Below, in pieces: positions 4,275 to 26,455 of a DNA stretch of 32,000 nucleotides (within the stretch, counting starts at the first letter, position 1; every line of letters starts with the position of its first letter). A program made the translations under genes and the position numbers. Where the stretch lies: contig JBDHVY010000001.1 of the NCBI GenBank assembly GCA_039809905.1, forward strand, positions 900,001 through 932,000. The letters are read 5' to 3'. Below the pieces are notes generated by a model. That model saw nothing but the letters and a program-made list of their open reading frames with translations, was not told where the DNA came from and did not search any database. The stretch comes from Candidatus Babelota bacterium. Lineage in GTDB: Bacteria > Babelota > Babeliae > Babelales > Vermiphilaceae.

Positions 4275-4973
4275 ATGAAAATCAAAAATGAAGCGATTAT
4301 TGCGTCATTATTCTGTTCAATTCTCAGTTCTACAGTGACAGCAGATACTGCAACATCTGATCCGGTAGAAGTTCTTTTTACCAATATTTATAAAACAAAA
4401 TTTTGGCAGTTAGGCGAAAGTGTTTCAGGTCCTGGTTCAGAATTAAAGGTTACTGAAAAAACACGGTATGCATTGAGTGAACTACTGAAAAGATTTAGCA
4501 TTAGTTCAATTGCAGATGCGCCTTGTGGTGATTATCATTGGATGAGACACGTGAATATTGGAAATTGTACATATCTTGGCCTTGATATTGTTGATGAATT
4601 AATTCAAAAAAATAGTTCCTTATTCGGTTCTGACAAAATAAGATTCCAGCACGCGAATTTGATTGATAATGTGATAGAGAAAGTAGACCTTATCATATGT
4701 AGAGATATGCTCGCTCATTTAACTGATGAACAAATTTTTAAAGTTATTCGCAATTTTAAAGCGAGTGGGGCAAAATATCTTCTGGCTACTACTAACTATG
4801 CAGTGCAAAGCAATACATATATTGATAGAGCTGGTGATTGGCGCAAACTTAATCTTGAAGCTGCACCATTTAATTTTCCAAGACCATTGGCAATTATTGA
4901 AGAAGATGTTCCTTTCACTTGGGAACAAGGCAAGCATTTGGCATTGTGGTTTTTAGATGATATTAATGTGTAA
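4275..4973 (+). CDS. class I SAM-dependent methyltransferase with N-terminal signal peptide
   Basis: The signal-like N-terminus is MKIKNEAIIASLFCSILSSTVTA|DT. The motif I region is SIADAPCGDYHWM, followed by YLGLDIV (motif II acidic residue) and LIICRDMLAHL. SD AAAGGG lies 5 nt upstream. Confidence 0.75.
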   Translation: MKIKNEAIIASLFCSILSSTVTADTATSDPVEVLFTNIYKTKFWQLGESVSGPGSELKVTEKTRYALSELLKRFSISSIADAPCGDYHWMRHVNIGNCTYLGLDIVDELIQKNSSLFGSDKIRFQHANLIDNVIEKVDLIICRDMLAHLTDEQIFKVIRNFKASGAKYLLATTNYAVQSNTYIDRAGDWRKLNLEAAPFNFPRPLAIIEEDVPFTWEQGKHLALWFLDDINV

Positions 4974-5127: not shown

Positions 5128-8100
5128 TTAATCAAGACCAAGCTCAAGTGAATCATGAGTCCAACGATGGAATGCTTCTGCAGGTACTTCTTCTTGCTGA
5201 TGTTGCACCTTATCACCACTCAAAATAAATGCAGGCATTAAAGAAAGTGCAATCAAACGATAATTCCAGATCTTTTCAGGATAAAACGTTTTCATGATGC
5301 CAACATTACCACTGTCTGGGTTTCTGGTATAAAATCCTAATCCGTTAGATTGTAAACCAACATTTTCTGAAAAAGCTGAGACAGGTACCCGCATTCTCCT
5401 GGCTAACTGTTGAGCAATTCCATTTAATTCTGCGGCGCATTGGCAAGAAAACAAATTAATATGTTGTCCTTTCTGATATCCAGGAGCGGTTCTAATAAGG
5501 CGTGCTAATTGCGTGGCATTCAGTTCTACGGTTCCTGTAGCAATCAGTTGTAAGAGATTAGACTGGCTTAGCCCTTTGGGATGAATTGCTTGAACGTCAA
5601 CCCAAATAGTGTGTGGATTACCGTGTCCCAATACATTAAAAGGAGCAGCTTGGCTTTTATGCCATCGAGCTCGTGCAAATTCGTAATGAACACTATTGGT
5701 TAGAACAAGATCATCTTCAGCAATGGCTACCTCCGCGTTAGTCCATTTGCCCGCACGCGGATTAGGTACAAAAGGAACTCTGCCTTGCAAAGCATATCGA
5801 TATTGATGTACGCGATCTATAACTTTGTCGGTAATATTTTTTATGGTACCTTTTCCTTTTTGGTAGACAATTTTTACGCCTTTTCCAGCTATTTGAATAC
5901 CTTTCAAGATTCCGCATGCAAGAGCCATATTATAAATAACTTCACCAGGTGTTGTAACACCAGTATATAAGTCGCGTGTTGTTCCTGTGGCAAAACATGC
6001 GATACTTAGAGGGTTAGGTATCATAGCAAAAGTATCAATTGTTTTATTCAGGGCATCGACAAATGCGATGCGAATTATAGGGGTTACTTGTTCAATTAAA
6101 CGTGGTATTTTTGGATGTACAATGCGATTGTGTAAAGATCGTTTTGATTGAACCTGTTTGTTGTTGCTGTGTGCATATTCGAGTATAAGGTCTGCATAGA
6201 CATTTTGATTGAGCGATTTTTCTATTGATGTTAATACCAGATCGTGTGCAGCATTATTGGTATCAGTTTTTCTAGGACTATTTTTACGAGCTGGTTTGGT
6301 TATATGTTTTGTATTCTTCTTATGTACAGGGTTTGTTTTTTCTTGATGTATATGTAATGTTGCATATGCTTGACTTGTAGCTGCAAGCAGTGATTGATAT
6401 TCGCTGAGCGCTGCAAGTTGTCCTCGAACTGCAATATCATTATCAATAGCATTGGTTGCAGCACTAGCTGCAATAGTAGGATTTTGGCGTGTAAGAGCAG
6501 CTACTGATGCGGCGGCTATTTTAGCCAGTTTCATTCTTTCATGAACTTCGTGATCAATAGCGCGTTGAATATTTGCAGGAGTTTTTTGTATGCCTTTTTT
6601 ATTGAGGCGTGCAATAGCGTTATCAGCAATTGCTTGCGAATCAGCAATAAGCAAAGCTCCTATAGTTTCTGCAGTTACAACTCCCGTGACTCCTGAAACA
6701 AATCCTTTGCGAGATTGTTCTTGCGCAAAACCACTTAATCCGCCAACAAGCGCTTGGCCAACTTGTTTGATAAGTTCATGAGTATATGCAGCGCAAATTT
6801 CGTTGCTTGCATATGCTGCAATTGCTTTCAGCGGAATCTGTTGGATTGTTTTACCAAGCGATTTATCAAGTGGTGCGTTGGTGATTGCAGTAGTAAGTAG
6901 AGTATCTACGGTACTTTGCAATGCATGTTGTTGTACATGTTGTGAGAGTGATTTGATACCGGGTTCCATATTGATATCAAGCATGCTGCCAAGCTGCGTG
7001 CACAATCCTGCAGATGCCATGGTAAAGCATAGCGATTGCACATGAGCAGGAGATACCATCTGTTTGGCGGTGTTGATAGGATCGCCTGTTTTAAGAAAAG
7101 AAGTTGTCGCGCTGCTGTATACAGCACTAATGCCCGCATTTACGGCAGCAATTCCTGCTGCACTCAACTGCATACCAGTGGCAGCTGTTACATTCGTCAG
7201 TAATGGTTGAAGTAATTCCATACCCATGCCTTGCGTATACCAAGTGATTGCAAGTGCAATCACTACCAATGCTTCATCAGGAAAAACTGGTGATACATGA
7301 TGCCAATTGCGTTGCCACTGCTTCAGGTGATAGGTTGTTTCTACAAAAGTACCAATAATTTCAGTGCGATTTTTATCCATGATGGCAGATTCAAAAAGCA
7401 TGTGCCCATCATGTTGTGCGCGTATAATTTTTTCTACCATCAGCATTGGTGGAATCATTGTCTCATAACCAGCTTCAAAACCGATATCAGCAGAAGATAA
7501 AGGACTAGAAATGAGTGTTTGTGCAGAGCATAGCATTTCTGCTACTTTAGCAACAAATTGAATGCCTTTTTCTGTTTCATCATGCAATTCAGTTGCGTGA
7601 ATGTTTGCATTGACTTGTGCGCTTTCGCCTAAGAAACGAATACGCGGTGATTGCATGTGTGCAGCAGCTGCAAACGGAGTTTGCTTGGATGATTTTTTAC
7701 TTTCATCGGTAAACATGCCACTTTTTTCTTCAGAACTGGTAAATGTATTGGCAAGTAACAACCCTTCAATGTTGATTTGTGGAGCTTCATAGATGATTTC
7801 TTGCTGCGCAATATCTTGTTGAGCAGTTGCTTGTATAGCAACATGAGCTTTGTCATGCAAAATAGTTCCTGCATGCGTTTCGCAGGGCAATGCGCTATGC
7901 GTAAGGCTGGTCTCCACTCTGGATGATGATGAAAACAAGCCGTTTTTTTCATGACGTGTTTCAGTGAATGTTTGTAATACGAGTGGATTTTTAATAACCG
8001 AACCATGTTCTGATTGTTCTGTGACATCATGTGCTGCAGCAATGACTGTTCCGGTGCGCGTAATATTTTTATCACTGTGCACCTTTACTGGCCCTGCAGG

Positions 8101-9960
8101 AGCAATGAGTTGTTGCTGAGGCATTGCGCATTGCATTATTGTTTTTGAATTGAATGATTCACTAACCACGGTATATGATTGTGTTTGTAGATTAAGAGCG
8201 CCTGCAGTTGATTGCATGGTGATTCCATTGGGACCTGTTGCAACAATGCGGTTATTAAGATGTGTTTGATCATTATCAGTGATGCAAGAGAATTCATCAG
8301 TAGCAATATCCCCTGGCGATTGGTACGGGTTGATGTCGTTTGGTGCTAAGCAAAGCATAGTATGTTGCTGTAATTCATCGCTTGGTGTGGAAACGATTTG
8401 TGTAAGCAACATTGATGTGTCAACGTGCTGCACATCTTCAGGTGATATGATTTCTTTTTGGTTGTGCTGTTTCCATTGCAGAGCATTTTCCTGCAGCATT
8501 GCACTGATGCTTTTCTCTTGTGTTTTAAGTATTTTTCCTGCAAGCGTACTAATAAGTTGCTGTAAAAATGAATCAAAATTAATGCCACTGAGTGGATTGG
8601 AGATATTCTGCCAATCAAGCGGTATCGCTTGATTGTTTCCAAGGAGCACTCGGCTGTTGCCATCGATTCTTGTTGGTATACCAAGAGGAAATTCTGTTCT
8701 TACACTGCCATCGGCAGCTAATCGATAAATTCCCGGTTTTTGTGCTTCTTGTTGAATGTATTCAGTAACATTTACCAGCATTGGCTCAGTTGCAATTGTG
8801 GTATTGCGCCTGCGCTCTGTATTGATGAAAGATCCTGTATTGCCGGTGATGGCGACGGTGCCAGCATTCATGTTGCCGGTAATGGCAAAGTCACCCAAGT
8901 TCATAGTAATGTTTTCACCAGCTTGCGTGATACAGGATAAGATAAAAGGAGGAAGCTGATGGTCAAGTTGGCCAGCATAAGTTTTTACAATAATGTTTTG
9001 TGGTTCTTCAATATAGTGTGGTGAACTATGCAATAGAGATTTATTGTTGCATATTTTACCTCCACTACGAATTGAGCTTGCAAAATTGTAAATTTTTGTT
9101 TTTATTAAAAATTTAATCTCTTTTAAAGATTCCAGAATTGCCGGACCTGAACCAGCATATTGTGATGAAACGCCGTAACAATGCTTAGTGATGGCCTTTT
9201 CACGAATATGATCATATTCGTCAGCTTCAATGCTTATTATTCCTTGGGACGATATTTTGCCGGCAAGATTTTGAATTTTATTGTGTGCTATTATTTTACT
9301 ACCAATAGTATTTGTTACAGTACCATGATTCAGAAATATATTGCGAGCTGATCGAAGAGTAAGTATATTATCTGATGCCGCGTAAGACCCGTTACTTTGC
9401 TTAACCGCAGAAAAACGAGACATCATAGGTGTTTGGTTTCGATGCTCTTCTTTTTCAAATCGTTCAGCGCTTTGTATGTTCTTCCTGAGCCTTGCAGGTG
9501 ATCCGAATGAAGCATACAAATTGTATTGTTGTTTAATGTCTTCATCGATACCCCAGATTGAATCACCAACAGTAATATCGCCAATTGTTGATTCAATTAA
9601 TGTTGGGCCTTTGCCATACAATTTAGCGTAACGCCCATCAATTGCATCAGCAATGACTGTCAACGGTCCATGCGTTGCAGCAAGAATTCCCATTTCTTCA
9701 TTATTTTTTCCTAAGGTCAAAAGACCGTTTACTTTGAGTGAAAGGGTAGGTGTTTTTAACGCATAATGCAGAGTGAACGGACCATTTACTGTTAAATCAA
9801 GATGATTGATGTTTGAAAAACCATAATTTTGTTCGAAAGAAAAAGTTGAGGGCCTCAGCAGGTTAATAGCATAGCATGCAATAGTAAATTTTCCTGGTGT
9901 GTCTGGTAGTTTTTCTAAAAGTGGAAATAGATCAGATTGTTGATAAATGACGGGATTCAT
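5128..9960 (-). CDS. giant (1610 aa) multidomain toxin/adhesin-like protein
   Basis: This is a single uninterrupted ORF. The N-terminal ~420 aa is rich in short beta-strand-like repeats (e.g. ITGNMNAGTVAITGNTGSF). The central Ala/Gly/Thr-rich hydrophobic block (DNA ~6600..7290, e.g. ALVVIALAITWYTQGMG...SAAGIAAVNAGISAV...ALVGGLSGF) recalls the DUF637/FHA-2-type regions of FhaB/CdiA-like exoproteins. A basic linker follows (KKNTKHITKPARKNSPRKTD). The C-terminal domain carries VLGHGNPH (H1446) and INLFSCQCAAE (C1506/C1508). There is no N-terminal signal peptide and no obvious SD. Confidence 0.85.
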   Translation of the reverse strand: MNPVIYQQSDLFPLLEKLPDTPGKFTIACYAINLLRPSTFSFEQNYGFSNINHLDLTVNGPFTLHYALKTPTLSLKVNGLLTLGKNNEEMGILAATHGPLTVIADAIDGRYAKLYGKGPTLIESTIGDITVGDSIWGIDEDIKQQYNLYASFGSPARLRKNIQSAERFEKEEHRNQTPMMSRFSAVKQSNGSYAASDNILTLRSARNIFLNHGTVTNTIGSKIIAHNKIQNLAGKISSQGIISIEADEYDHIREKAITKHCYGVSSQYAGSGPAILESLKEIKFLIKTKIYNFASSIRSGGKICNNKSLLHSSPHYIEEPQNIIVKTYAGQLDHQLPPFILSCITQAGENITMNLGDFAITGNMNAGTVAITGNTGSFINTERRRNTTIATEPMLVNVTEYIQQEAQKPGIYRLAADGSVRTEFPLGIPTRIDGNSRVLLGNNQAIPLDWQNISNPLSGINFDSFLQQLISTLAGKILKTQEKSISAMLQENALQWKQHNQKEIISPEDVQHVDTSMLLTQIVSTPSDELQQHTMLCLAPNDINPYQSPGDIATDEFSCITDNDQTHLNNRIVATGPNGITMQSTAGALNLQTQSYTVVSESFNSKTIMQCAMPQQQLIAPAGPVKVHSDKNITRTGTVIAAAHDVTEQSEHGSVIKNPLVLQTFTETRHEKNGLFSSSSRVETSLTHSALPCETHAGTILHDKAHVAIQATAQQDIAQQEIIYEAPQINIEGLLLANTFTSSEEKSGMFTDESKKSSKQTPFAAAAHMQSPRIRFLGESAQVNANIHATELHDETEKGIQFVAKVAEMLCSAQTLISSPLSSADIGFEAGYETMIPPMLMVEKIIRAQHDGHMLFESAIMDKNRTEIIGTFVETTYHLKQWQRNWHHVSPVFPDEALVVIALAITWYTQGMGMELLQPLLTNVTAATGMQLSAAGIAAVNAGISAVYSSATTSFLKTGDPINTAKQMVSPAHVQSLCFTMASAGLCTQLGSMLDINMEPGIKSLSQHVQQHALQSTVDTLLTTAITNAPLDKSLGKTIQQIPLKAIAAYASNEICAAYTHELIKQVGQALVGGLSGFAQEQSRKGFVSGVTGVVTAETIGALLIADSQAIADNAIARLNKKGIQKTPANIQRAIDHEVHERMKLAKIAAASVAALTRQNPTIAASAATNAIDNDIAVRGQLAALSEYQSLLAATSQAYATLHIHQEKTNPVHKKNTKHITKPARKNSPRKTDTNNAAHDLVLTSIEKSLNQNVYADLILEYAHSNNKQVQSKRSLHNRIVHPKIPRLIEQVTPIIRIAFVDALNKTIDTFAMIPNPLSIACFATGTTRDLYTGVTTPGEVIYNMALACGILKGIQIAGKGVKIVYQKGKGTIKNITDKVIDRVHQYRYALQGRVPFVPNPRAGKWTNAEVAIAEDDLVLTNSVHYEFARARWHKSQAAPFNVLGHGNPHTIWVDVQAIHPKGLSQSNLLQLIATGTVELNATQLARLIRTAPGYQKGQHINLFSCQCAAELNGIAQQLARRMRVPVSAFSENVGLQSNGLGFYTRNPDSGNVGIMKTFYPEKIWNYRLIALSLMPAFILSGDKVQHQQEEVPAEAFHRWTHDSLELGLD

Positions 9961-10248
9961 GGCGAAAAGTAATTGCGTAAAATATATAGAAAAAAAATTG
10001 AGAGATAAATGCTATGCTTTGCCATGATGATGCTTTCATTTTAATGATAAATGCATCAACTATAGCAAAAAAACATAAGATTATAAACAGAAAATGAGCG
10101 TTGTGATAAAGCTTGTTATATCGGTTAAAAAAAACGAGTGCTATATTCAAATCCGCAACACATAATTGTTTTTAATTTATGTTTTATATATTACGCTTAA
10201 CTATGAAAATTGGGTTTGAACATATAATCGTATAAGATATCTGTAATT

Positions 10249-10917
10249 ATGGAAATGGGCTTTTTAGGTTTCTTGTATGGATTGTCTTTATTTTTGGTGT
10301 CTCAGGAATCAAAGAAGGTACCAAAAAAATTAAATATTTATACTGATGCTCATAAGGCTTGCTATGGTTTTTATTCTTTGCCTTCAGAGATTCAAGAACA
10401 TATTACATCATTATTTATAAGTCATATAAGTTCAGAATTAAAGTACCAGAATTTTCAAAAGACGCTTTTAAATAATGGTATTTTCAGATCTGATTATTGT
10501 AAACAATTAGATCGTGAAGAAAATAAAATAGCGTATGATGAAGATCATCCAAATGATAGATATGTGCAATCATTATTTTATACTGAAAGATCTACACAGT
10601 ATTTTAAGCAAAATCATTATCATTTATGTTTGAAAAGATCGCGGTTAGGTATATTGAAGATGCTTGATTGTAAGCAGTCAGAGGTGTCTTTGGTAACATT
10701 TAAGAATAATGTTATTAAGGTGTATTATAAAAGAGATGATGAAGGATATGATCTTCAACTATGGCTTCTTTCAATAAATCAGATAAAAGATAAGTTGGAT
10801 TGTTTACCGTTTGCTTTGGCATATAAGGATTTTGATAGTTCAAAAAAAGATTTTATACCAATACATTTGCTTTGCAGAAAAAATATTACCTATGATTCCG
10901 TAGAATCCAATAAATAA
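10249..10917 (+). CDS. hypothetical protein with F-box-like motif
   Basis: 222-aa ORF. Residues 44-56, LPSEIQEHITSLF (DNA 10378..10416), fit the LPxEIxxxIxxxL core of F-box domains. There is no clear SD and the 3' end overlaps the convergent membrane-protein gene by 32 bp, so the call is weaker than its neighbours. Confidence 0.5.
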   Translation: MEMGFLGFLYGLSLFLVSQESKKVPKKLNIYTDAHKACYGFYSLPSEIQEHITSLFISHISSELKYQNFQKTLLNNGIFRSDYCKQLDREENKIAYDEDHPNDRYVQSLFYTERSTQYFKQNHYHLCLKRSRLGILKMLDCKQSEVSLVTFKNNVIKVYYKRDDEGYDLQLWLLSINQIKDKLDCLPFALAYKDFDSSKKDFIPIHLLCRKNITYDSVESNK

Positions 10918-11554
10918 TGAGGCTGCACACGGCAGCAAAAAAGCACCAGACTGATGGAAATGCCATAAGATAAAAAATATAGGCAATAATTGCGCTCATT
11001 CCTATAATAATTCCTAATAATTTCATGTATGGAACTGATGAGATAAAAAATGGAACAAGGGTTACAAAGAAATACAAAAAGCTCAGCGTAAGCGATCCGA
11101 TTCTACAATAAATTGGATTGGTGCAATCAAAAGGATACGGATCAACAGGATAATCAATGTGGTGATGTGTAATAACAGCACCACTTGTTTTTAAAAGCCA
11201 GTACCACAGAAAAAGCAAAGAAACAAGAATACCTAGGCATATTATTTTAAATAATAATTGCTTTCGTTTGTATATATCTTCTGCCCAATAAAGCGAAGCA
11301 GAAATCCAGGTTGGCCAAAACATTCCAGCAAAAAAAAGGAATACGTACATGCTGCTTACGTGCAGCAAGCTTGTTGTATCACCGTTATTAAGAGTTACCC
11401 ATACAAATCCTTCACTTGCTTGTTGAATACCAAAAAAAAGTGGAGTAAGTGCAATCGGTATAGTTTTTTTTGTGCGCACTTGTTTAATTGATAAAAGACT
11501 GATGAGTGATAAACCTGCAGCTGCCGTAAAACTTGCTCCTGCGGAAAAACACAT
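10886..11554 (-). CDS. polytopic integral membrane protein, function unknown
   Basis: 222 aa with about 6-7 hydrophobic helices. The N-terminus MCFSAGASFTAAAGLSLISL...PLFFGIQQASEGFVW resembles a conserved bacterial DUF membrane family (from memory). A strong SD (AAAGGAG) lies 6 nt before the ATG. Confidence 0.75.
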   Translation of the reverse strand: MCFSAGASFTAAAGLSLISLLSIKQVRTKKTIPIALTPLFFGIQQASEGFVWVTLNNGDTTSLLHVSSMYVFLFFAGMFWPTWISASLYWAEDIYKRKQLLFKIICLGILVSLLFLWYWLLKTSGAVITHHHIDYPVDPYPFDCTNPIYCRIGSLTLSFLYFFVTLVPFFISSVPYMKLLGIIIGMSAIIAYIFYLMAFPSVWCFFAAVCSLIIYWILRNHR

Positions 11555-11570
11555 ACCAAACTCCTTTAAA

Positions 11571-11645
11571 CCGTTCGATATGGTTCGACCAGCTCACCAC
11601 GAACGGAGGAGTATATTTGTTCCCTTCGTACTGAGCTTATCGAAG
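11571..11645 (-). promoter_or_regulatory. structured intergenic RNA element (two hairpins): terminator and/or 5' leader of the membrane-protein gene
   Basis: Read on the minus strand, the first hairpin is CUUCG-12 nt-CGAAG (11645..11624). The second is CCGUUCG-22 nt-CGAACGG (11606..11571), which encloses UGGU-CGA-ACCA. It is followed by UUUAAAGGAG and ATG 11554. CGAAC occurs twice, which allows alternative pairings. Confidence 0.3.
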
Positions 11646-11662
11646 TATATGAACATATAAAT

Positions 11663-12661
11663 TTAATAAACATTTTTAGTCAAATACGCACGCCCTGAAT
11701 CACCAAAAATGATAACAGCAACATCATCTTTTTTTAATTTTGGTAAATAATGCTGTACGCCCCAGGCTACTGCACCACTTGTTAATCCAACCAAAAATCC
11801 ATAATTACGAGCAAGGTTTTTAAGCATATTAAAAGCATCTTCATCTGAAACAGGAATAATTTCTTCAATAATATCGTTATTATCGTAGTTAATAATATCA
11901 GAATAAAAATCTATACCCATGCCTTCTACTTTATATGGCTTTGGATTTCCTTTGGTGGAATATAAGGAATTATTTGAATCGAGAGCGATTATCTTAATAT
12001 TGGGATTTTTTCCTTTTAAATATTTTCCTACTCCGGCAATTGTTCCGCCAGTTCCTGCAGCAGCAAAAAAATGAGTTATTGTTCCATTGGTTTGTTCCCA
12101 TATTTCTGCCCCGGTTAAATCATGATGTGATTGCGCATTTACGGGATTAAAGTATTGGTTAGGAAAGAAAGAATTGGGAGTAGATTCTTGTAGGCGTTTT
12201 GCTAAAGAAATATAACTATTAAAATCATCACTTGCAGCTATTGGGCATACGATAACTTCTGCGCCATATGCACGCATTGTTTGCAGCTTTTCCTGACTGA
12301 TTTTTTCGGATGTAGTGATAATAACTTTGTATCCTTTTGCAGCGCCAATCATAGCTAATGAAATGCCATAATTACCAGATGAAGCATCGATAATAGTTCC
12401 ACCAGGGTTGAGTTCACCTGATTTTTCAGCATGTTCTATCATATACAATGCAGATCGGTCTTTTATACTACCACCGGGATTGAGGTATTCAAGTTTGGCG
12501 TAAAGTGTTGCAGGTGTATCAAAAGGTAAACGAACAAGAGGGGTGTTGCCAATGGCTGAGAGTATATGATTATGCATAATATGAGGCCTTTTTTGATTAT
12601 GAATGATGCAATACATTAAAAATAATATACTTATCAGAATAATTATATGCTTTATCGGCAT
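11663..12661 (-). CDS. PLP-dependent cysteine synthase / cystathionine beta-synthase family enzyme with N-terminal hydrophobic extension
   Basis: Family motifs present: GNTPLVRL, LEYLNPGGSIKDRSA (PLP lysine), ASSGNYGISLAM and AAAGTGGTIAGVGKYLK. The start at 12661 has a strong SD (AAAGGAG, 5-nt spacer) and adds MPIKHIIILISILFLMYCIIH before the catalytic core. The alternative ATG at 12577 has a weaker SD. Confidence 0.9.
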   Translation of the reverse strand: MPIKHIIILISILFLMYCIIHNQKRPHIMHNHILSAIGNTPLVRLPFDTPATLYAKLEYLNPGGSIKDRSALYMIEHAEKSGELNPGGTIIDASSGNYGISLAMIGAAKGYKVIITTSEKISQEKLQTMRAYGAEVIVCPIAASDDFNSYISLAKRLQESTPNSFFPNQYFNPVNAQSHHDLTGAEIWEQTNGTITHFFAAAGTGGTIAGVGKYLKGKNPNIKIIALDSNNSLYSTKGNPKPYKVEGMGIDFYSDIINYDNNDIIEEIIPVSDEDAFNMLKNLARNYGFLVGLTSGAVAWGVQHYLPKLKKDDVAVIIFGDSGRAYLTKNVY

Positions 12662-12754
12662 AATAGCTCCTTTTTTTTTACACTATAGTCATCATTTATC
12701 AGAATGTCACTAAACGGTGAGCTTGATAGTGTTTTTAAGCTTAAATAACTCGGT

Positions 12755-12783
12755 TTGTAACAATATTGAAAGTGTGATATTAT
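12755..12783 (+). promoter_or_regulatory. sigma70-type promoter candidate for the ankyrin-repeat gene
   Basis: TTGTAA (12755-12760), a 17-nt spacer and TATTAT (12778-12783), with an extended -10 TGa at 12775-12777. It sits about 60 nt upstream of ATG 12842. Confidence 0.35.
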
Positions 12784-12841
12784 ATCCCAGAAAGCATTGT
12801 TGCAATAAGAAATTTAATGATAAGCTGAGAAAAGAGTCATA

Positions 12842-13789
12842 ATGATACTATGTGATAAAAAATTAGTGGTAGTAATGCTACTTTTGGCAATTTTTAATCG
12901 GGCGGTGGCGATGAAGCGATCGAGTGATGGACATGACTTAAATAATCCAAATAAGCGACTAAAAATGAGTCGTATTAGTACAAAAGATTCTGACATTTCA
13001 AGTTTTAAATCAGTTATTTCCAGTAGTTGGCCATCGCAAGTAACAAATACGTTTGCTAACAGTTCAGAGTGTGCAGTGTCGATTTATCAAGAGGAACAAC
13101 CTGTTGATTTGAGGGCGTCGCTTGAGGAGCAAGCACGAGTTAAGGCATTTGCTTTATCATATTACATGGCAGCAGACAGTAAGCTTGCTGATGCAATGGC
13201 AGCTTGCGATTTTGAGCAAACAAACCGGTATACACAGAAGCTATGTACATTAAAATCTTATCCTTTTGGCATAGTAGCTGGTATTGTAGCAAGTGATTTT
13301 TCAAGTCAACAAAAAATTAAATTGTTTGATAAAATTCAAAACATAATCAGTAGACAATTGCAAATAAAGCTGTTTAATCAAGTGAGTGGTGAGGGTTTTA
13401 AGCCTTTGGAATTGGCAGTTCAATATAATGATCATTCAATGGTTTATAACCTTATCAAGAGAGGAGCTGATCCAAAAGGCTTGGATCAGAGAGGAGAGCC
13501 TATTTTTTTACAGATAAAAAGAGTTGAAATAGGAACATTATTTTTAACCGCAGGTGTTCCCATAGATATTAAAAATAATAAGGGAGAAACAATATTATTT
13601 AATAATGCAACAATACTCCCTGAAGAAATAAAAATAGCGACATGGTTTATTGCAAAGCGTGGCAATATAAAACACAAAAATATTTATAATCAGAATGCTT
13701 TTCAGAAGCAGAATATACAAGGAAATGCAAATCCTGATTTGGAAGTTCCAGAAGAAATTTTGGAAAAACGAAGAATTTTTACACGTTAA
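12842..13789 (+). CDS. ankyrin-repeat protein with N-terminal hydrophobic/signal-like segment
   Basis: The C-terminal half carries ANK-like units: GFKPLELAVQYNDHSMVYNLIKRGADPKGLDQRGEPIF and LFLTAGVPIDIKNNKGETILF. The N-terminus is KKLVVVMLLLAIFNRAVA. Confidence 0.75.
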   Translation: MILCDKKLVVVMLLLAIFNRAVAMKRSSDGHDLNNPNKRLKMSRISTKDSDISSFKSVISSSWPSQVTNTFANSSECAVSIYQEEQPVDLRASLEEQARVKAFALSYYMAADSKLADAMAACDFEQTNRYTQKLCTLKSYPFGIVAGIVASDFSSQQKIKLFDKIQNIISRQLQIKLFNQVSGEGFKPLELAVQYNDHSMVYNLIKRGADPKGLDQRGEPIFLQIKRVEIGTLFLTAGVPIDIKNNKGETILFNNATILPEEIKIATWFIAKRGNIKHKNIYNQNAFQKQNIQGNANPDLEVPEEILEKRRIFTR

Positions 13790-13800
13790 TAATTTTTATA

Positions 13801-13834
13801 AAAAAAGCGCTCACTTAAAATGAGCGCTTTTTTT
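13801..13834. terminator. bidirectional rho-independent terminator
   Basis: A6, then stem AAGCGCTCA, loop CTTAAAA, stem TGAGCGCTT, then T-run. It lies between convergent stops at 13789 (+) and 13846 (-). Confidence 0.8.
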
Positions 13835-13845
13835 GTGTTCCATTC

Positions 13846-14811
13846 TTATCTAAATAAAATCATCAATAACGATAATATAACGGTATAAAGAACCATGGTT
13901 TCAATGAGTGTTTGTGCCAATATGCTTGTGCGAGAAAGAATGTTATATGAATCGGGATTCTCACCAATTTGCGTGCATGCTGCGGCAGCTGTTCTTCCTG
14001 AGCTAATGCCAGCACCAAGAGTACCAAAACCAGTACAGAAAGCTGCAGATAAAAATATAATGCCATCAATGCTATTATCAATTGGTGTGCGTGAAACAAC
14101 AAAAAGAAGAGTGATAGCAATTATGAGGCAGAAAATAATAGGAGTTTCAATAAGCGCTTCACTGATAAAAGTAAATGAAAGGAGCTTATCATATGCTTTT
14201 ATGTTTTTGCCTAAATTTTTTACTGCTGCTTTTGCAAAAGAGCTGAGACCAATTGCTGGCCCAATACTACCAAGACCAACACATAAACCACTTGCAATAA
14301 GACGGAGGCTATCGCTCATATTTATTGCGGAACTTGCTTGACCTTGAATAAAAAGAGACACAAGGAAAGCTGAAATCATTGGTGTTTGAATAAGAACTTG
14401 TGCTAAAAGCATAAATGATAAAATGCGGTGTGCAAAAAAAGGTTGCCGTGCAACTGCATCACATGCAGCTTGAGCAGGAAATGTTGAAGCAAGACCAATA
14501 GTGAATCCACTTATTCCCATTGCTGCAATGATGCCAAGTTCAGAATAGTAAGAAAATTCATTAACTGATTCTACATTCGTATACATGAGCAAAAAAATTG
14601 AGATAAGAAATCCCAATATTGCTACCGTTTCTACTAATGTCATACCAATAAATGCAACACGCATAATAGCATCTTTTGCTTGCGGTTGCCTATTCATAGC
14701 ACCAAGAGCACTCCAGCTGATAAGGCCTTCACCAAGACCAACAGAAATTGAACTTATGGCAATTGATAGAGTGATTGCACCATAGTGTAAATATTCATAT
14801 GAGAAGTTCAT
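13846..14811 (-). CDS. atpE: F-type ATP synthase Fo subunit c, four fused hairpins (8 TM helices) in one 321-aa polypeptide
   Basis: Four consecutive c-subunit-like helix-loop-helix units of 80-82 aa. Unit 1 is GLGEGL...AMNRQPQAKD...MTLVETVAILGFLISIFLL. Unit 2 is AVARQPF...AQVLIQTPMISAFLV. Unit 3 is NLGKNIKA...SEALIETPIIFCLI. Unit 4 is QIGENPDS...AQTLIETMVLYTVIL. It lies directly downstream of an F-type a subunit. Confidence 0.85.
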   Translation of the reverse strand: MNFSYEYLHYGAITLSIAISSISVGLGEGLISWSALGAMNRQPQAKDAIMRVAFIGMTLVETVAILGFLISIFLLMYTNVESVNEFSYYSELGIIAAMGISGFTIGLASTFPAQAACDAVARQPFFAHRILSFMLLAQVLIQTPMISAFLVSLFIQGQASSAINMSDSLRLIASGLCVGLGSIGPAIGLSSFAKAAVKNLGKNIKAYDKLLSFTFISEALIETPIIFCLIIAITLLFVVSRTPIDNSIDGIIFLSAAFCTGFGTLGAGISSGRTAAAACTQIGENPDSYNILSRTSILAQTLIETMVLYTVILSLLMILFR

Positions 14812-14829
14812 TTTATTTTATCCTAATTT

Positions 14830-15561
14830 CTAATGTCCGCCTTCTTGTGTTCCTATCGAAAGATAGGTGAGTGTCAGCATTGCAAAAACAAATGCTTGCA
14901 GAAGTCCTTCAAAAAGAGTGAAAAATGTAACAATCAAAAAATTAGCACCAGTCAAAAGACCAACTGATTCAAGAATAATTGATCCACTGATGGTGCTGAA
15001 ATAAAGTTTTGTGATAATTGCACCACCAAATATGTTTCCGAATAAACGAAATGATATTGAAACAATCGATGATAGCTTTCCTATAACATTAAGGGGGAGC
15101 ATGACAAAAAATGGTTGAAAGAAGTCTTTTGCATAAGGAATAAAGCCTCGTGATTGTATAGCAATTGCTTGTACATATACAAAAGAAATAATGCCTAAGG
15201 CTAAAGCTGTATTAATATCTTTTGTTGGCTCATCTAGCCATGGAATTAAGGGCGCTGTGTTACAAAGGCCGATAAAAATAAAAAGAGATGCTGCAAAAAC
15301 ACAGTGATTGTAAGCAAACATGCCGAGTGATTGTTTTGTAAGATCAATAAAAAATGAAACAAACTCAATCAACATAAAGCGACCAAGCTTGGTATGATGC
15401 ATGATATATTTAACGCACGTAAGAAATAGTGCCAAAATAATCATGATAACCCATGTGTTCACTACTATTTCACTATTAACCATGAACAAGAGATTATCTT
15501 CATAACCAAAAAATGAACCTAAATACCATTGTGGCGTTTCAATTAATTCAGCACCGTTCAT
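14830..15561 (-). CDS. atpB: F-type ATP synthase Fo subunit a
   Basis: Contains the hallmark SISFRLFGNIFGG (the essential Arg of the RLxxN motif) and about 5-6 TM helices. The ORF extends to ATG 15588. ATG 15561 is preferred because AAAAGGG lies 8 nt upstream of it. Confidence 0.85.
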   Translation of the reverse strand: MNGAELIETPQWYLGSFFGYEDNLLFMVNSEIVVNTWVIMIILALFLTCVKYIMHHTKLGRFMLIEFVSFFIDLTKQSLGMFAYNHCVFAASLFIFIGLCNTAPLIPWLDEPTKDINTALALGIISFVYVQAIAIQSRGFIPYAKDFFQPFFVMLPLNVIGKLSSIVSISFRLFGNIFGGAIITKLYFSTISGSIILESVGLLTGANFLIVTFFTLFEGLLQAFVFAMLTLTYLSIGTQEGGH

Positions 15562-15915: not shown

Positions 15916-17346
15916 TTAGTGAGAAAGTTTCTTAAGACCTTTATGCTTCCAGTATTCAGAAATAATTGATGTTGAGCCAGTGATAACAATAACACCATGG
16001 CGTTCATCAACAGTTTTTTGGGCAGCTTCAAGCGCTTCTGCAAAGTTTGCAGTTGCTTTAGCTTTTATTTTCAGGCTTTTGATATCATTTGTTACTTTTT
16101 CAATATCCCAAGCTTTATGTCCTTTGTGTCCAGGTACTGGTTCTACTGGGCATACAATAACTTGACCAGATGTTTTTTTGAAGAAATAACGGAGTAATTT
16201 AATGAGTTCATGGATATCTAATTCTTCATTGTTGCAACCAAGAATAATAGTAAGTCCTTTTAATGGACGTTTATAATGAAGAAGGCGTGTTCCAAGAAGC
16301 AAGTTTTTGAATGCATCAAGATTTGCTGCTGGATCAAGTAAAATTGTTGGTTTTTCTTTGTCCAATAACTGGAAGTGTCCTGGCAATGTGTTAAGAGTTT
16401 CTTTCCAGAATTGTTCAATAGTACGTTTTGGATTCAGTTCAGTTTGGCGTTTGATTTCAAGTGTTGGTCTACCGCGTTGACCTTTTTTCTTAGTTAAAAG
16501 ACTATTGGCAACAAGTACAGAATCTTTTTGAGCAAATGAATTGATATAAATAGAAGTAATACGTTCAGCTAATGCGGCACATCTTCCATGAAGTTGTTCA
16601 AATGGATATGCAAGTGGAGCAAGTTTACGAATTGGCATAGCCCATTCAGCATTTTTTTCTACAACAATGTCTTGCATTGTTTGGAGGTTAAGTTTGCTTT
16701 GGTCAGCAGAAACAACAATAGCACCAGGTTTAACAATGCTTAAAATTTCTTGAATCAATGCTTTATCGGTGCTTTTTGCATTTGGAGAAGCTTGAGGATC
16801 AATAATTCTGGTGATCGCAACAATTTTTGATGAACAAATATTTGTTGCGTCAGATGGTCCATTTTCATTTACTTCTAGGATAGCAACATCTACATTGCTT
16901 TGTTTGAAGTAAACAAGCGCCATCATAGTTAATATTTCGAAAGAATTAAGTGTAAGATTAAGATCTTCAGCTATATTGATAACTTCGTTACCAACATCAG
17001 TCAAAACTTTGTTTGAGATAGTTTCATTATTAAGAGAAAAGCGCTCATTGTATGTTAAAATATGTGGCGCATAAAATGTTCCAACAGTAAGTCCTTCTTC
17101 ACGTAATAGACGAGTAGTGAAATGACTTGTTAAGCTTTTGCCATTTGTACCAGCGATTACAATAGTAGGAACTTTTTGTGAAAGTGAACCGAGAGCTTTA
17201 TCGAGTTGTTTGAGAGAAGAAAGCGTTGTGTCAGCGCGATTTGCTGTCCAACTGCTTTCTAAATAGTCTATAATTTCGTTATAACTGCGTTGCTTACCGG
17301 TTCCTTTTGCAGCAGCGGTAGGCTTTTGATTTGTTACATTTTTCAT
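15916..17346 (-). CDS. folC: Mur-ligase family protein, folylpolyglutamate/dihydrofolate synthase (FolC)-like, with divergent motifs
   Basis: The block YNEIIDYLES...TIVIAGTNGKSLTSHFTTRLLREEGLTVGTFYAPHILTYNERF fits the FolC N-domain (GTNGKGS P-loop, SPHL...ER). It is followed by FEILTMMALVYF and AILEVNENGPSDATN (canonical E-GlGGrlDATN). SD GGAGA lies 5 nt upstream. Confidence 0.75.
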   Translation of the reverse strand: MKNVTNQKPTAAAKGTGKQRSYNEIIDYLESSWTANRADTTLSSLKQLDKALGSLSQKVPTIVIAGTNGKSLTSHFTTRLLREEGLTVGTFYAPHILTYNERFSLNNETISNKVLTDVGNEVINIAEDLNLTLNSFEILTMMALVYFKQSNVDVAILEVNENGPSDATNICSSKIVAITRIIDPQASPNAKSTDKALIQEILSIVKPGAIVVSADQSKLNLQTMQDIVVEKNAEWAMPIRKLAPLAYPFEQLHGRCAALAERITSIYINSFAQKDSVLVANSLLTKKKGQRGRPTLEIKRQTELNPKRTIEQFWKETLNTLPGHFQLLDKEKPTILLDPAANLDAFKNLLLGTRLLHYKRPLKGLTIILGCNNEELDIHELIKLLRYFFKKTSGQVIVCPVEPVPGHKGHKAWDIEKVTNDIKSLKIKAKATANFAEALEAAQKTVDERHGVIVITGSTSIISEYWKHKGLKKLSH

Positions 17347-17568
17347 CGATTTCTCCAGGTCTCTAATGATTTTTATGATTTCTTTGATATTCTTTAATTT
17401 GTAAGAGATTATATACCATTATTGGTTATTTTTACCAAATTTAGTAAAAATTAGTCAGTTAGGCAAAAATCTTACCTGTTTACTTAGGATATAGCATCCT
17501 GCAAAAATGTCAAACAAGAAATTATAATTGAGTCATTGTCTCATTATTTACAAAAGAAAAAGGCATAT

Positions 17569-18189
17569 ATGAAACTCTTGTCATGGAATGATTCTGAATC
17601 ACTTGAGTTCCTGGTTGATACATTAAAAAAAGGCAATATTGTTCTTGCCGCTGGTGATACTGTATTAGGCCTTCTGGCCGATATATCAGAAGGAGGATGT
17701 GCGCAGCTTGATGCAATTAAAAAGCGATCAAAACAGCCTTATTTATTATTGGTTGAAAATACGCAAAAAGCCCTTAATCTAATTGAAAAAGATGCCCTCG
17801 AAATATTTCAAGCTGAAAAAATAATGAATATTTGTTGGCCGGGTCCAGCTACCTTAATTTTAAAAGCGAAGGCAGAAGTTCCTGAGGGGGTAAAGTCTCC
17901 TGACGGTACTATTGCCATCCGAGTGCCAGATCATGCTGGATTGCTTCAACTGCTGCATCATTTTGATGCCTTATATTCAACAAGCGCGAACCTTAAGGGT
18001 GAACCTGTTCCTGCTCATCTGGAAAAAATAGATAAAAGCATTCTGGAAGCTGTTTCTGCTATTGTTTTGAATGATAATGAATCCTCATCAACGCTTGCTT
18101 CCACCATTATTGACTGCACGGGAGATAAGCTCAAGATTGTTCGGCAAGGAGCTTTTCCGGTTGCAAAATTGGTGAGCTTGTTGGAATAA
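17569..18189 (+). CDS. tsaC: L-threonylcarbamoyladenylate synthase (TsaC/YrdC family)
   Basis: YrdC-fold motifs: GNIVLAAGDTVLGLLAD, KKRSKQPYLLLV, WPGPATLIL, IAIRVPDH, LYSTSANLKGEP and STIIDCTGDKLKIVRQGA. The ORF track starts at TTG 17536. ATG 17569 is preferred because of SD AAAAGG with a 5-nt spacer and a TATAAT box at 17523-17528. Confidence 0.85.
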   Translation: MKLLSWNDSESLEFLVDTLKKGNIVLAAGDTVLGLLADISEGGCAQLDAIKKRSKQPYLLLVENTQKALNLIEKDALEIFQAEKIMNICWPGPATLILKAKAEVPEGVKSPDGTIAIRVPDHAGLLQLLHHFDALYSTSANLKGEPVPAHLEKIDKSILEAVSAIVLNDNESSSTLASTIIDCTGDKLKIVRQGAFPVAKLVSLLE

Positions 18190-20065
18190 AATCTTGTTTG
18201 ATTAGCTTAAAATTGTTGATGAGGAATTTATGTTCTTTTTTAAACGATGCAAGAGCTCTTCCATCAGGCAAGTTGGGATGAAATAGAGTTCTTTTTTTAT
18301 TTTTTCTATAACAACAATACGTGTTAAATAATAGTGCTTGAGATAGCGTTAGTGATGTTTTGATGTCATTGAGACAAGCAGTAGCTTCTTTTGTGTGTGG
18401 GTATGCCAGAAATAATCTTACTTCAAATTTGTTTTGGCATGGATTTACTTGAGTTTGCTTAGTTACTAAGATTGATTCAAAACAAGGATGAAGAGCATAT
18501 TGTTGATTTCGACCTAGATTGAGAATTTTATCGCCTTCCATGTCCCAGAGTTCTGTTTTTTTTCCATGAGTTAAGAGTAATCCATCATAAGTGAAATGCA
18601 TATGTTGAACTATGTATTCAGTATCGATTTTTATTTTAGTAAGACGATCAGGAAAACCAGATATGTTCCAAAATGCTAAAGTTGATAAGGCAAAATGAGA
18701 AGAGAGTGAACCGTGCAAAGATACTATATGATTGCCTGTTGTATCTGCAATGATATTATGAATGCAGGGACCAATTTGACTGGTGTCTAATAGTGTTTTC
18801 TTGTTGTTTTCGTCCATAATGCATAGAGTTGTTGCATTTTTGTTGTAACAATAGATTCCTTTTTGAGAAATAAAAATATCTTTAAGGCCAGAATAAGTAT
18901 CTTCTGAAGATATACATTTTTTTTCAATAAGCTTATCATCTTGAATAGTGAAAAATAATTTTTTTTCTCTTTCCATAAGTATTGTCAGGAGATTCGAATT
19001 TTTATTAATGTTGGCAAGTTTTGCATGATATAGATTATCAAATTTTTTGTGATCTTTTATATTATTGGGTTTTTCCAGGTCGTATAAAATCAAGCGGTCG
19101 TCTTTTGTTGTACAGATTATATGGTTGCCATGAGAAGAAAAAAGATATGAACTTACATTATTCCAATCGTTTTTTAAAGAGGTTTTCTGAATTTTTTTTT
19201 CGTCTTTTATATAATGAAAAAGACTGTATTTACTATCGTTTTCAACAACTTTTGATTGTATAATATAGTTTTCATTGGGGTGAATTGTTGCAGTGTACCA
19301 TGAATAATTTTGATGATTATCGACCAATTCAATTGAGTTGTTTTCGCTCATGAAATACAAAAGAATATCAGTCTTTGCTGTCTTTCCGTATTTGTAGGTA
19401 TAGAGAATAATATAGCTATCTTGCGGACTAAAAAAAGCATGTGAGTAACCAGGGAAACTTTTAATACAGCGTTGTTCTTTTGTTGTCCATAAATTAATTT
19501 GACATGTTTTTTCGTTCATATTTTCCAAAAAATAATCGCCATTATGGCTATAGGAAAGAATTATAGGCTTTTTTGAAGAATGATATTTTAATTTTTTTAT
19601 ACGTATTTTTTCAAAAAAATATTTGTATATTGTTTTTTTGAGTAACCTCGTATTAATGGATTTAAGGGCAAGAGCATTGATTATGCTTTTTTCTGTCAAA
19701 ATTTCTTCCATGAGTTGTGCATAAAAAATAGGACATTTCAATTGTGCTGCAGCATCCATTAGTTTTGATTGTTCATTTCTGCCTAATGTTATTAAGAAAT
19801 TTTGATGAGACATTATTATATGAGAGCACCAAAAATCAAAAATTTCTTTATCTATTTTAAGGGGGATTGGATCTTTTTTTGTTGCTTTATATTTTTCTTG
19901 CAGCACAGTTAACAAATTTGATTGTTGTGCTATTGCATTATCAACACATATCAAATGCTTATCTTCAGTAATGACCCAAAGATAAGGTGTTTTTTGTAAG
20001 ATATTCATTGCCTTAAGGTGAGATAATATATTGATTAATAGAGCAAAAAGTAGTAAATAATTCAT
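18131..20065 (-). CDS. secreted protein: N-terminal Skp1/BTB (POZ)-like domain fused to paralog-family repeat body
   Basis: The signal peptide is MNYLLLFALLINILSHLKA. Residues ~25-125 (DNA 19691..19993), WVITEDKHLICVDNAIAQQSNLLTVLQEKYKATKKDPIPLKIDKEIFDFWCSHI...LMDAAAQLKCPIFYAQL, follow the Skp1 pattern ([24 protein letters not shown]...DPVPLPNV...[12 protein letters not shown]...LILAANYLDIKGLLD). The remainder is homologous to the ORFs at 21958..23280 and 23305..24768. Confidence 0.8.
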   Translation of the reverse strand: MNYLLLFALLINILSHLKAMNILQKTPYLWVITEDKHLICVDNAIAQQSNLLTVLQEKYKATKKDPIPLKIDKEIFDFWCSHIIMSHQNFLITLGRNEQSKLMDAAAQLKCPIFYAQLMEEILTEKSIINALALKSINTRLLKKTIYKYFFEKIRIKKLKYHSSKKPIILSYSHNGDYFLENMNEKTCQINLWTTKEQRCIKSFPGYSHAFFSPQDSYIILYTYKYGKTAKTDILLYFMSENNSIELVDNHQNYSWYTATIHPNENYIIQSKVVENDSKYSLFHYIKDEKKIQKTSLKNDWNNVSSYLFSSHGNHIICTTKDDRLILYDLEKPNNIKDHKKFDNLYHAKLANINKNSNLLTILMEREKKLFFTIQDDKLIEKKCISSEDTYSGLKDIFISQKGIYCYNKNATTLCIMDENNKKTLLDTSQIGPCIHNIIADTTGNHIVSLHGSLSSHFALSTLAFWNISGFPDRLTKIKIDTEYIVQHMHFTYDGLLLTHGKKTELWDMEGDKILNLGRNQQYALHPCFESILVTKQTQVNPCQNKFEVRLFLAYPHTKEATACLNDIKTSLTLSQALLFNTYCCYRKNKKRTLFHPNLPDGRALASFKKEHKFLINNFKLIKQDFIPTSSPILQPEKLLAEQS

Positions 20066-20104
20066 GTTTTTTTATACGAGTGGTAGAGATTTATTGTTAG
20101 TTTA

Positions 20105-20136
20105 TTGATCTGCAAAATATAGCATATGCAGATCAA
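20105..20136. promoter_or_regulatory. perfect 10-bp inverted repeat in a divergent promoter region (operator or hairpin candidate)
   Basis: TTGATCTGCA (20105-20114), 12 nt, then TGCAGATCAA (20127-20136). It lies between divergent starts at 20065 (-) and 20260 (+). A second palindrome, TTGCTCAGAGCAA (20193-20205), overlaps a possible -35 box. Confidence 0.3.
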
Positions 20137-20259
20137 AAGTATAGCTCTATTCTTTTTGCACAACAAAAATGAACATTTTTTTATAGTTATGATTGCTCAG
20201 AGCAAAAACAACATGATATTGTCTGATTAACTTTATTTTTATACAAAGGAGTTCTGTTA

Positions 20260-24913: not shown

Positions 24914-26455
<1,542 letters not shown>

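Follow-up and report, generated by a model that had tools for sequence, protein, structure and literature searches.

A probable CdiA-like giant exoprotein of a Candidatus Babelota bacterium with its predicted Sec signal peptide one base out of frame

Results

The giant gene and its regional architecture

The stretch of DNA analysed (32,000 nucleotides, positions 900,001 to 932,000 of the forward strand of contig JBDHVY010000001.1, assembly GCA_039809905.1; hereafter the window) belongs to a Candidatus Babelota bacterium, and the glutamyl-tRNA synthetase (GluRS) encoded in it shares 72-76% identity with proteins of Candidatus Babeliales bacterium. Related loci hold ankyrin-repeat genes and a fragment of an ATP/ADP translocase, and the source is accordingly placed in the Dependentiae (TM6). 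The window carries a minus-strand open reading frame (ORF, 5128-9960) for a giant protein of 1610 amino acids (aa), which a preliminary description had read as a relative of the filamentous exoproteins FhaB and CdiA without a signal peptide, a TpsB partner or an immunity gene. The kinship with CdiA was supported through homologues of the protein, and a Sec-type signal peptide was found to be encoded just upstream of the annotated start, one base out of frame.

In the ORF list and the translation, the 1610 codons were unbroken. From the local base composition of this AT-rich genome, a stop is expected about every 16 codons in a random frame, and a stop-free run of 1610 codons would arise by chance with a probability of ~1e-45. 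Four regions had been proposed, namely a beta-rich N-terminus, an Ala/Gly/Thr-rich segment, a basic linker and a globular C-terminus, and this layout was recovered by AlphaFold2 (AF2) modelling together with composition (Table 1). The trunk model, covering aa 1-1200 and built on 22 family sequences, had a mean predicted local distance difference test (pLDDT) score of 78. Strands were modelled in both beta regions, in agreement with a solenoid-like N-terminal part, and the hydrophobic segment, in which Ala, Gly and Thr made up 31-34% of the residues across aa 900-1200, was entirely helical over aa 895-1199. The Lys/Pro/Thr-rich linker and the distinct globular C-terminal domain could also be located, followed by a tail that is kept in the closest relatives only. 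By analogy, the second beta-rich region would occupy the place of FHA-2 in CdiA. Comparison of the trunk model (1200 aa) with the PDB by Foldseek returned noise alone (ApoB100 and outer-membrane barrels, E >0.2), the multi-domain model probably being too large.

Table 1. Features of the giant gene and of the DNA directly upstream of its annotated start (window coordinates)
Feature	Position	Strand	Basis
Annotated ORF, 1610 aa; predicted mature, signal-less part of a CdiA-like exoprotein	5128..9960	-	Translation and homologues
Beta-solenoid-like N-terminal region, aa 20-380	8821..9903	-	AF2 trunk model; short regular strands, mostly pLDDT 80-97
Mixed insert of helices and loops, aa 381-516	8413..8820	-	AF2 trunk model
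Second beta-rich region with long hairpins, aa 517-891	7288..8412	-	AF2 trunk model, pLDDT mostly >90
All-helical, Ala/Gly/Thr-rich hydrophobic region, predicted pre-toxin region, aa 895-1175	6436..7278	-	Composition, hydropathy, AF2
DUF637-homologous stretch, aa 939-1094	6679-7146	-	DUF637 matches of P0013, P0015 and P0021 mapped onto the window protein
AIDND, putative positional equivalent of VENN, aa 1171-1175	6436..6450	-	Aligned with NAVENN of P0020 and P0021
Lys/Pro/Thr-rich basic linker, aa 1205-1236, HQEKTNPVHKKNTKHITKPARKNSPRKTDTNN	6253..6348	-	Composition
Accessory module, aa 1237-1392, with hydrophobic stretch aa 1341-1359	5785..6252	-	Pairwise coordinates and BLAST
C-terminal domain with His and Cys, probably caspase-like (clan CD-like), aa 1393-1575	5236..5784	-	Alignment, AF2, Foldseek, profiles
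Candidate dyad, His1446 and Cys1506	5623-5625 (His1446); 5443-5445 (Cys1506)	-	Alignment of 20 copies
Low-confidence C-terminal tail, aa 1576-1610	5131..5235	-	pLDDT <50; short hydrophobic stretch, then acidic residues
Out-of-frame remnant of predicted 22-aa Sec signal peptide	9961..10025	-	Three-frame translation; alignment with DNA of relatives
T8 homopolymer, one base short relative to the reading frame	9990..9997	-	DNA alignment; U UUU UUU slippery heptamer on the mRNA
Promoter-like TTATCA-18-TATAAT, 55 nt upstream of the signal-peptide ATG	10080..10109	-	Consensus scan only

Relation of the protein family to CdiA and FhaB

In a public protein search, the identical sequence (P0001) and 21 homologues of 1432-2768 aa with 28-71% identity were retrieved, none of the homologues with an informative name; family members are referred to by P numbers and related genomic loci by L numbers. 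The family is spread over Dependentiae and alphaproteobacterial amoeba symbionts, and the source of P0021 is an amoeba symbiont recorded as Ca. Caedibacter/Paracaedimonas acanthamoebae. Among the 22 members, Pfam matches above threshold were obtained to DUF637 in eight (best E 1e-10), and matches were also obtained to PT-VENN in two (P0020 and P0021) and to CDI_toxin_EC869_like, the EC869-type DNase of contact-dependent inhibition (CDI), in P0020 (1e-48).

On the family alignment, the DUF637 matches of the relatives fall inside the hydrophobic segment that had been singled out beforehand, and the PT-VENN region maps to aa 1144-1176 of the window protein, where NAIDND (aa 1170-1175) aligns with NAVENN of P0020 and P0021. 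The window protein's own PT-VENN score is weak (E 0.07), and its VENN appears to have degenerated to IDND. Because the DUF637 and VENN regions of the homologues map onto its pre-toxin region, the trunk is a genuine but divergent relative of the CdiA-type pre-toxin architecture, as the preliminary description had supposed. The order of its regions, with a beta stalk, an insert, a second beta region, a helical pre-toxin region and a cargo, would also parallel that of CdiA. Pairwise coordinates revealed an N-terminal extension of 350-860 aa in many relatives and not in the window copy.

Signal peptide and homopolymer frameshift

The N-terminus had been described as lacking a signal peptide. Eighteen of the 21 relatives begin, as called, with a typical 22-aa Sec signal in which basic residues at the N-terminus are followed by a hydrophobic core ~15 residues long, with a small residue in position -1. 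The other three are called from a conserved Met, and for two of them, P0013 and P0015, the DNA upstream encodes the signal in frame. This Met stands directly after the predicted cleavage site in every relative, though the surrounding residues vary, and its equivalent in the window lies at 9958-9960; gene callers therefore start the three relatives and the window copy there. It would allow internal initiation of a signal-less isoform.

In the window, the signal peptide starts from a minus-strand ATG (10025-10023) whose frame differs from that of the ORF by one base. Translation of the DNA preceding the annotated ATG gives MAKHSIYLSIFF in one frame and ..FSIYFTQLLFAMNPVIYQQ in the frame of the ORF, and the remnant reads MAKHSIYLSIFF, a shift, and then ..SIYFTQLLFA. 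When aligned with the DNA of the two closest loci (P0002 and P0003, syntenic tandem paralogues), the window proved to be one base short within the T run. A T9 run would give a product starting with MAKHSIYLSIFFSIYFTQLLFA followed by MNPVIYQQ after the cleavage site, and P0003 starts with MAKNSIYSLIFFSICFAQIIFG followed by MNPAVYQQ. The start context and the upstream DNA are conserved between the window and these two loci. In the consensus scan, the count of promoter-like sites in the region was not above chance expectation.

The run is also T8 in a separate Logan assembly of run SRR27308757, which argues, although not conclusively, for a real lesion against an assembly error. As judged from the aligned DNA, the "missing" signal peptide is best described as a one-base frameshift in a homopolymer, and the gene start in the annotation as an artefact of it. 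For the T8 lesion, a very recent inactivation or an off-switch is the likeliest reading, ahead of a homopolymer sequencing error. An upstream extension with a signal peptide, which the preliminary description had named as an outcome that would refute it, is essentially what was found, its frame broken by a single base, and the apparent oddity of a giant exoprotein without one has an ordinary explanation. Export through a type IV or type VI secretion system (T4SS, T6SS) or another Sec-independent route was rejected as the leading idea, since the family carries classical Sec signals.

Conservation and fold of the C-terminal domain

The last ~180 residues assigned to the C-terminal domain recur in 19 further copies in 17 relatives with 36-63% identity, three of the copies in P0010. 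Cys1506 is invariant in all 20 aligned copies, and the His of a His-Gly pair is kept in 19, the exception being the middle repeat of P0010. The motifs PFNVxGHG, GQHINLFSCxCG and VPVSAF were recognised in the alignment, and the window protein retains all family-invariant residues, including the His/Cys pair. The AF2 model of the domain is an alpha/beta sandwich (pLDDT 83.8, core >90), in which GHG (aa 1445-1447) follows model strand 67-70 and Cys1506 follows strand 127-130. The His precedes the Cys by 60 residues in the window protein. A His before the Cys, a His-Gly pair and a spacing of 49-60 residues are hallmarks of clan CD, which includes the caspases, legumain and the C80 domains.

When the model was searched by Foldseek, the cysteine protease domain (CPD) of the Vibrio cholerae MARTX toxin (3gcd) ranked second (E 0.018, probability 0.84), and legumain and GPI8, a subunit of glycosylphosphatidylinositol (GPI) transamidase, followed lower within the top 20. 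In profile searches, DUF4347 gave subthreshold similarity, with E 0.058 for the window protein and values as low as 1.7e-5 among five relatives, and Peptidase_C80 (E 0.008) and the "lonely Cys" domain (lonely_Cys, E 0.002) were each found once, likewise below threshold. On the model and these matches, the C-terminal domain is probably a clan-CD (caspase/CPD-like) cysteine protease.

The accessory module in front of the domain is present in part of the family only. According to BLAST it moves with the C-terminal domain as a cassette, and it occurs in the tandem repeats of P0010 and P0023. Extra unannotated tails follow the domain in P0015 (aa 1994-2161) and P0022 (aa 2237-2317), and P0015 is overlapped by a co-directional 218-aa ORF (L017, 13122-13778). 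A conserved trunk with variable tips, as anticipated for polymorphic toxins, was not found; conservation in the C-terminal domain and in the trunk is about equal.

Occurrence of the C-terminal domain in other toxins

A full-library profile search returned 1683 representative clusters with the C-terminal domain at E <=0.001. Among 60 small representatives, the domain was located C-terminally behind PAAR, prePAAR and Rhs core modules, behind a Fil_haemagg+DUF637+VENN fragment and behind phage MuF/minor-capsid modules, and a phage MuF-type protein matched the fold of the C-terminal model (E 2e-6). Such a distribution over PAAR, Rhs, CdiA and MuF proteins is that of a cargo domain in polymorphic toxins, and it is in line with the "Tox-Caspase" class of Zhang et al., an alpha/beta domain with His and Cys that serves as a releasing peptidase or as a C-terminal toxin and sometimes forms arrays (PMC3482391).

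Secretion partner, immunity gene and neighbourhood

The two-partner secretion (TPS) domain (PF05860) was matched neither in the window protein nor in any of the 22 members at E <=0.01 in Pfam, and the whole-family profile found no solved TPS-domain structure in the PDB. Haemagglutinin repeats (PF05594/PF13332) gave no Pfam match in the window protein or the 22 members, the AF2 model being strand-rich and solenoid-like. No gene for TpsB, Omp85, ShlB or a POTRA protein was recognised among the ORFs of the window even at Pfam E <=10, and none for TpsB among the precomputed Pfam matches of the neighbours at six related loci.

Beyond the 3' end of the giant gene, the window has no small ORF in the same direction, and no consistent one was present at the six related loci. 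In the window and at most related loci, the genes that come next are convergent or unrelated, with co-directional ORFs directly downstream at the loci of P0021 (Caedibacter, 101 aa) and P0015 (the overlapping 218-aa ORF) only. Pfam searches of these two candidate immunity ORFs and of the tails of P0015 and P0022 gave no match. The absence of a TpsB partner and of a regular immunity gene thus held within these loci, and the downstream neighbour was confirmed as a convergent methyltransferase gene (4275-4973, plus strand).

At the syntenic locus (L015) of the closest related genome, tandem paralogues of 1619 and 1438 aa (10001-14860 and 16316-20632) flank a gene for an AAA_14/DUF4143 ATPase, whereas the window has one giant copy and, instead of the ATPase gene, genes for the methyltransferase and an M50 peptidase.

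The remaining window contains further genes of interest. A prepilin peptidase gene with A24 N-terminal and A24 domains (26498-27283, minus strand) encodes a component of type II secretion or type IV pili. A 508-aa ORF (28026-29552, minus strand) has a signal peptide and a C-terminus resembling that of outer-membrane barrels (...MAGLNVTF); it gave no Pfam match even at E <=10 and is a candidate outer-membrane protein ~18 kb from the giant gene. Eukaryote-like repeats typical of intracellular symbionts occur in a signal-peptide protein with weak ankyrin repeats (12842-13789, plus strand) and in a 644-aa WD40 beta-propeller protein (18131-20065, minus strand). At 24914-26416 (minus strand), a protein of 500 aa is encoded that has collagen repeats and, at its C-terminus, a BclA domain, resembling an exosporium fibre, and its G-X-Y repeats account for a local GC spike to 0.48. 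The gene at 13846-14811 (minus strand) encodes an ATP synthase c subunit of 321 aa with four fused c hairpins (four ATP-synt_C matches), in which the Glu of helix 2 is present in three hairpins (LVET, LIET, LIET) and replaced by Gln in one (LIQT). This fused gene also adjoins atpB in the related genome of L015. Among bacterial F-type enzymes, c subunits with several fused hairpins are uncommon, and without one of the carboxylates the number of ions per ATP would be altered. Neither Rfam nor tRNA scanning of the window gave a match.

Discussion

Proposed function and export

On balance, the gene product is probably a CdiA-like giant without a TPS domain, exported by the Sec system as an effector directed at the host, with its signal peptide out of frame in the window copy. 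In intact family members, the 22-aa signal peptide would direct passage through the inner membrane. The beta-solenoid N-terminal half and the second beta-rich region would form an extended stalk, followed by the helical, hydrophobic DUF637/pre-toxin region that ends in the presumably degenerate VENN (AIDND). The cargo would then consist, in order, of the basic linker, the optional accessory module and the alpha/beta domain with its candidate His-Gly ... Cys dyad. It may act as a clan-CD cysteine protease on eukaryotic host proteins, and self-cleavage might occur.

Dependentiae live as obligate intracellular parasites in protists; they have both an inner and an outer membrane as well as a Sec system, and signal peptides are present on ~44% of their proteins (PMC6561590). 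The sole dedicated secretion system detected in them is of type II (PMC4378268, PMC4776705). Since no TpsB is linked to the gene and only Sec plus type II have been reported in Dependentiae, a type II route or release in vesicles would be the best guess for crossing the outer membrane. Export to the surface or the medium could then present or deliver the protease to the protist host.

In the window copy, the loss of one base from a T9 run would have put the signal peptide out of frame. The product as sequenced would be either a signal-less cytosolic form starting at the conserved Met or a protein exported only by slippage on U8, and export of this copy would at present depend on a frame restored by slippage or by a T9 subpopulation.

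A host-directed role, as proposed in the preliminary description, is plausible from the intracellular lifestyle of Babeliales and from the missing immunity genes. Immunity-less toxin-like giants of amoeba endosymbionts have likewise been read as host-directed (PMC3482391).

Several observations weigh against this interpretation. The full 1610-aa protein gave no match to Pfam, NCBIfam or PDB sequences, and the link to CdiA runs via its homologues. The protease assignment is built on weak structural matches (template modelling scores of 0.32-0.37 in Foldseek) and subthreshold profile matches, and no meaningful PDB match came from profile searches, whether with the C-terminal domain, its wider relatives or the family as a whole. 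In P0015 and P0022, the C-terminal domain may instead be a releasing peptidase for further cargo with its own immunity protein. In addition, the part of the genome covered was the 32-kb window.

Alternative explanations

It is unlikely that the gene is a decaying pseudogene, that is, what is left of a once longer exoprotein gene, now without function. Decay would be in keeping with the out-of-frame signal peptide, the lack of the long N-terminal extension of many relatives and the small, reduced genome, but the other 1610 codons are unbroken where random stops would be frequent, and every family-invariant residue is kept, the His/Cys pair included. Extension-less forms with intact signal peptides occur in at least six relatives, and the P0002 and P0003 loci, which are in frame, share the conserved promoter region and start context of the window; from this upstream conservation, any inactivation would therefore be very recent.

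Classical interbacterial CDI, in which an unlinked CdiB/TpsB would export the CdiA protein, the C-terminal domain would be delivered into competing bacteria and the immunity gene would lie elsewhere, is distinctly unlikely. The TPS domain is present in none of the 22 members, TpsB is absent from the window and the six related loci, the C-terminal domain is conserved and not polymorphic, no immunity ORF occurs regularly, and the organism is an obligate intracellular symbiont of a phylum with only the type II system reported. In favour of such a system are the homology of the trunk to DUF637/PT-VENN proteins, the VENN motifs of the distant members P0020 and P0021, the first with the EC869-type DNase and the second with a small co-directional downstream ORF, and the occurrence of the same C-terminal domain in PAAR, Rhs and true CdiA proteins, for which an antibacterial role is typical.

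Slippage on poly(A) or poly(T) runs rescues frameshifted genes in AT-rich endosymbionts. A deliberate switch at T8, whether by transcriptional slippage, -1 frameshifting on U UUU UUU or slipped-strand phase variation, is nevertheless very improbable: the run conforms perfectly to the X XXY YYZ slippery heptamer, the exact ancestral signal peptide is restored by a -1 shift on it, and the conserved Met would permit a signal-less isoform in all relatives, but the signal is out of frame only in the window among the eight loci examined, the T run in the relatives is shorter or interrupted, and no stimulatory RNA structure was found 3' of the run (minimum free energy -1.3 kcal/mol, z = 0.7), so that with the seven other loci unshifted and such a structure missing a conserved programmed device is unlikely.

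Significance

With the Sec-exported, host-directed giant as the preferred explanation, a wider and more doubtful idea is that Dependentiae and some alphaproteobacterial amoeba symbionts may share CdiA-derived giants that were freed of the two-partner machinery and act as self-contained translocators. If so, a Sec signal and one further outer-membrane step would suffice, the beta-rich and pre-toxin regions would serve as the translocator, and a caspase-like protease would cross a eukaryotic (vacuolar) membrane, giving a device like the MARTX or clostridial toxins made from CDI parts.

Almost nothing is known of how Dependentiae, a widespread phylum, act on their protist hosts, and the family offers a concrete, conserved effector candidate with a candidate catalytic dyad and sequence-defined modules. 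A CdiA pre-toxin architecture without a TPS domain or TpsB also bears on the modularity of the CDI delivery apparatus, and the cargo domain, widespread in ~1700 representative clusters, is still without a curated family model.

Comparison with known systems

The CdiA pre-toxin trunk, the caspase-like toxin domain and the host-directed toxin-like giants of endosymbionts are known parts. Their combination here, with a Sec signal but no TPS domain or TpsB, a conserved cargo and a Dependentiae host, appears to be undescribed.

With CdiA and FhaB (TpsA proteins, type Vb), the family shares its giant size and, as modelled, a solenoid-like richness in beta strands, the DUF637 pre-toxin region through homologues and a putative motif at the VENN position directly before a modular C-terminal cargo. 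Distant members bear a true VENN, one of them also the EC869-type CDI DNase, and the order of regions would parallel FHA-1, receptor-binding region, FHA-2, pre-toxin (PT) and C-terminal toxin (CT). The family differs in that a 22-aa Sec signal is followed at once by the stalk with no TPS secretion domain between them, in having neither a linked TpsB nor Pfam haemagglutinin repeats, and in a cargo that is conserved between genomes, not polymorphic, and comes with no regular immunity gene.

Peptidase C80 domains of MARTX and large clostridial toxins share with the C-terminal domain the GHG and hydrophobic-x-C motifs, the His-Cys spacing of 49-60 residues and a weak structural match (3gcd), with one relative at E 0.008. 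They differ in the lack of a significant sequence match and in position, the domain studied here standing at the very C-terminal end, where no effector domain is left to be released. C80 domains are activated by inositol hexakisphosphate and cleave themselves in a Leu-specific manner. For DUF4347, found in PA0256 of Pseudomonas aeruginosa, a putative Hcp-dependent T6SS effector, all matches remained below the Pfam gathering score; the profile similarity extends over the Cys half, and PA0256 likewise has no obvious immunity gene (PMC8262886).

For the Tox-Caspase class (PMC3482391), the likeness was drawn from its description, in which the listed routes of delivery do not include a DUF637/VENN trunk. 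The domain studied here has no curated Pfam or NCBIfam model. The resemblance covers the alpha/beta domain with a conserved His followed by a Cys, its terminal place in toxins that use various means of delivery (PAAR/T6SS, Rhs, MuF and Sec), and tandem arrays, which occur in P0010, in P0023 and in giants with 4-7 copies.

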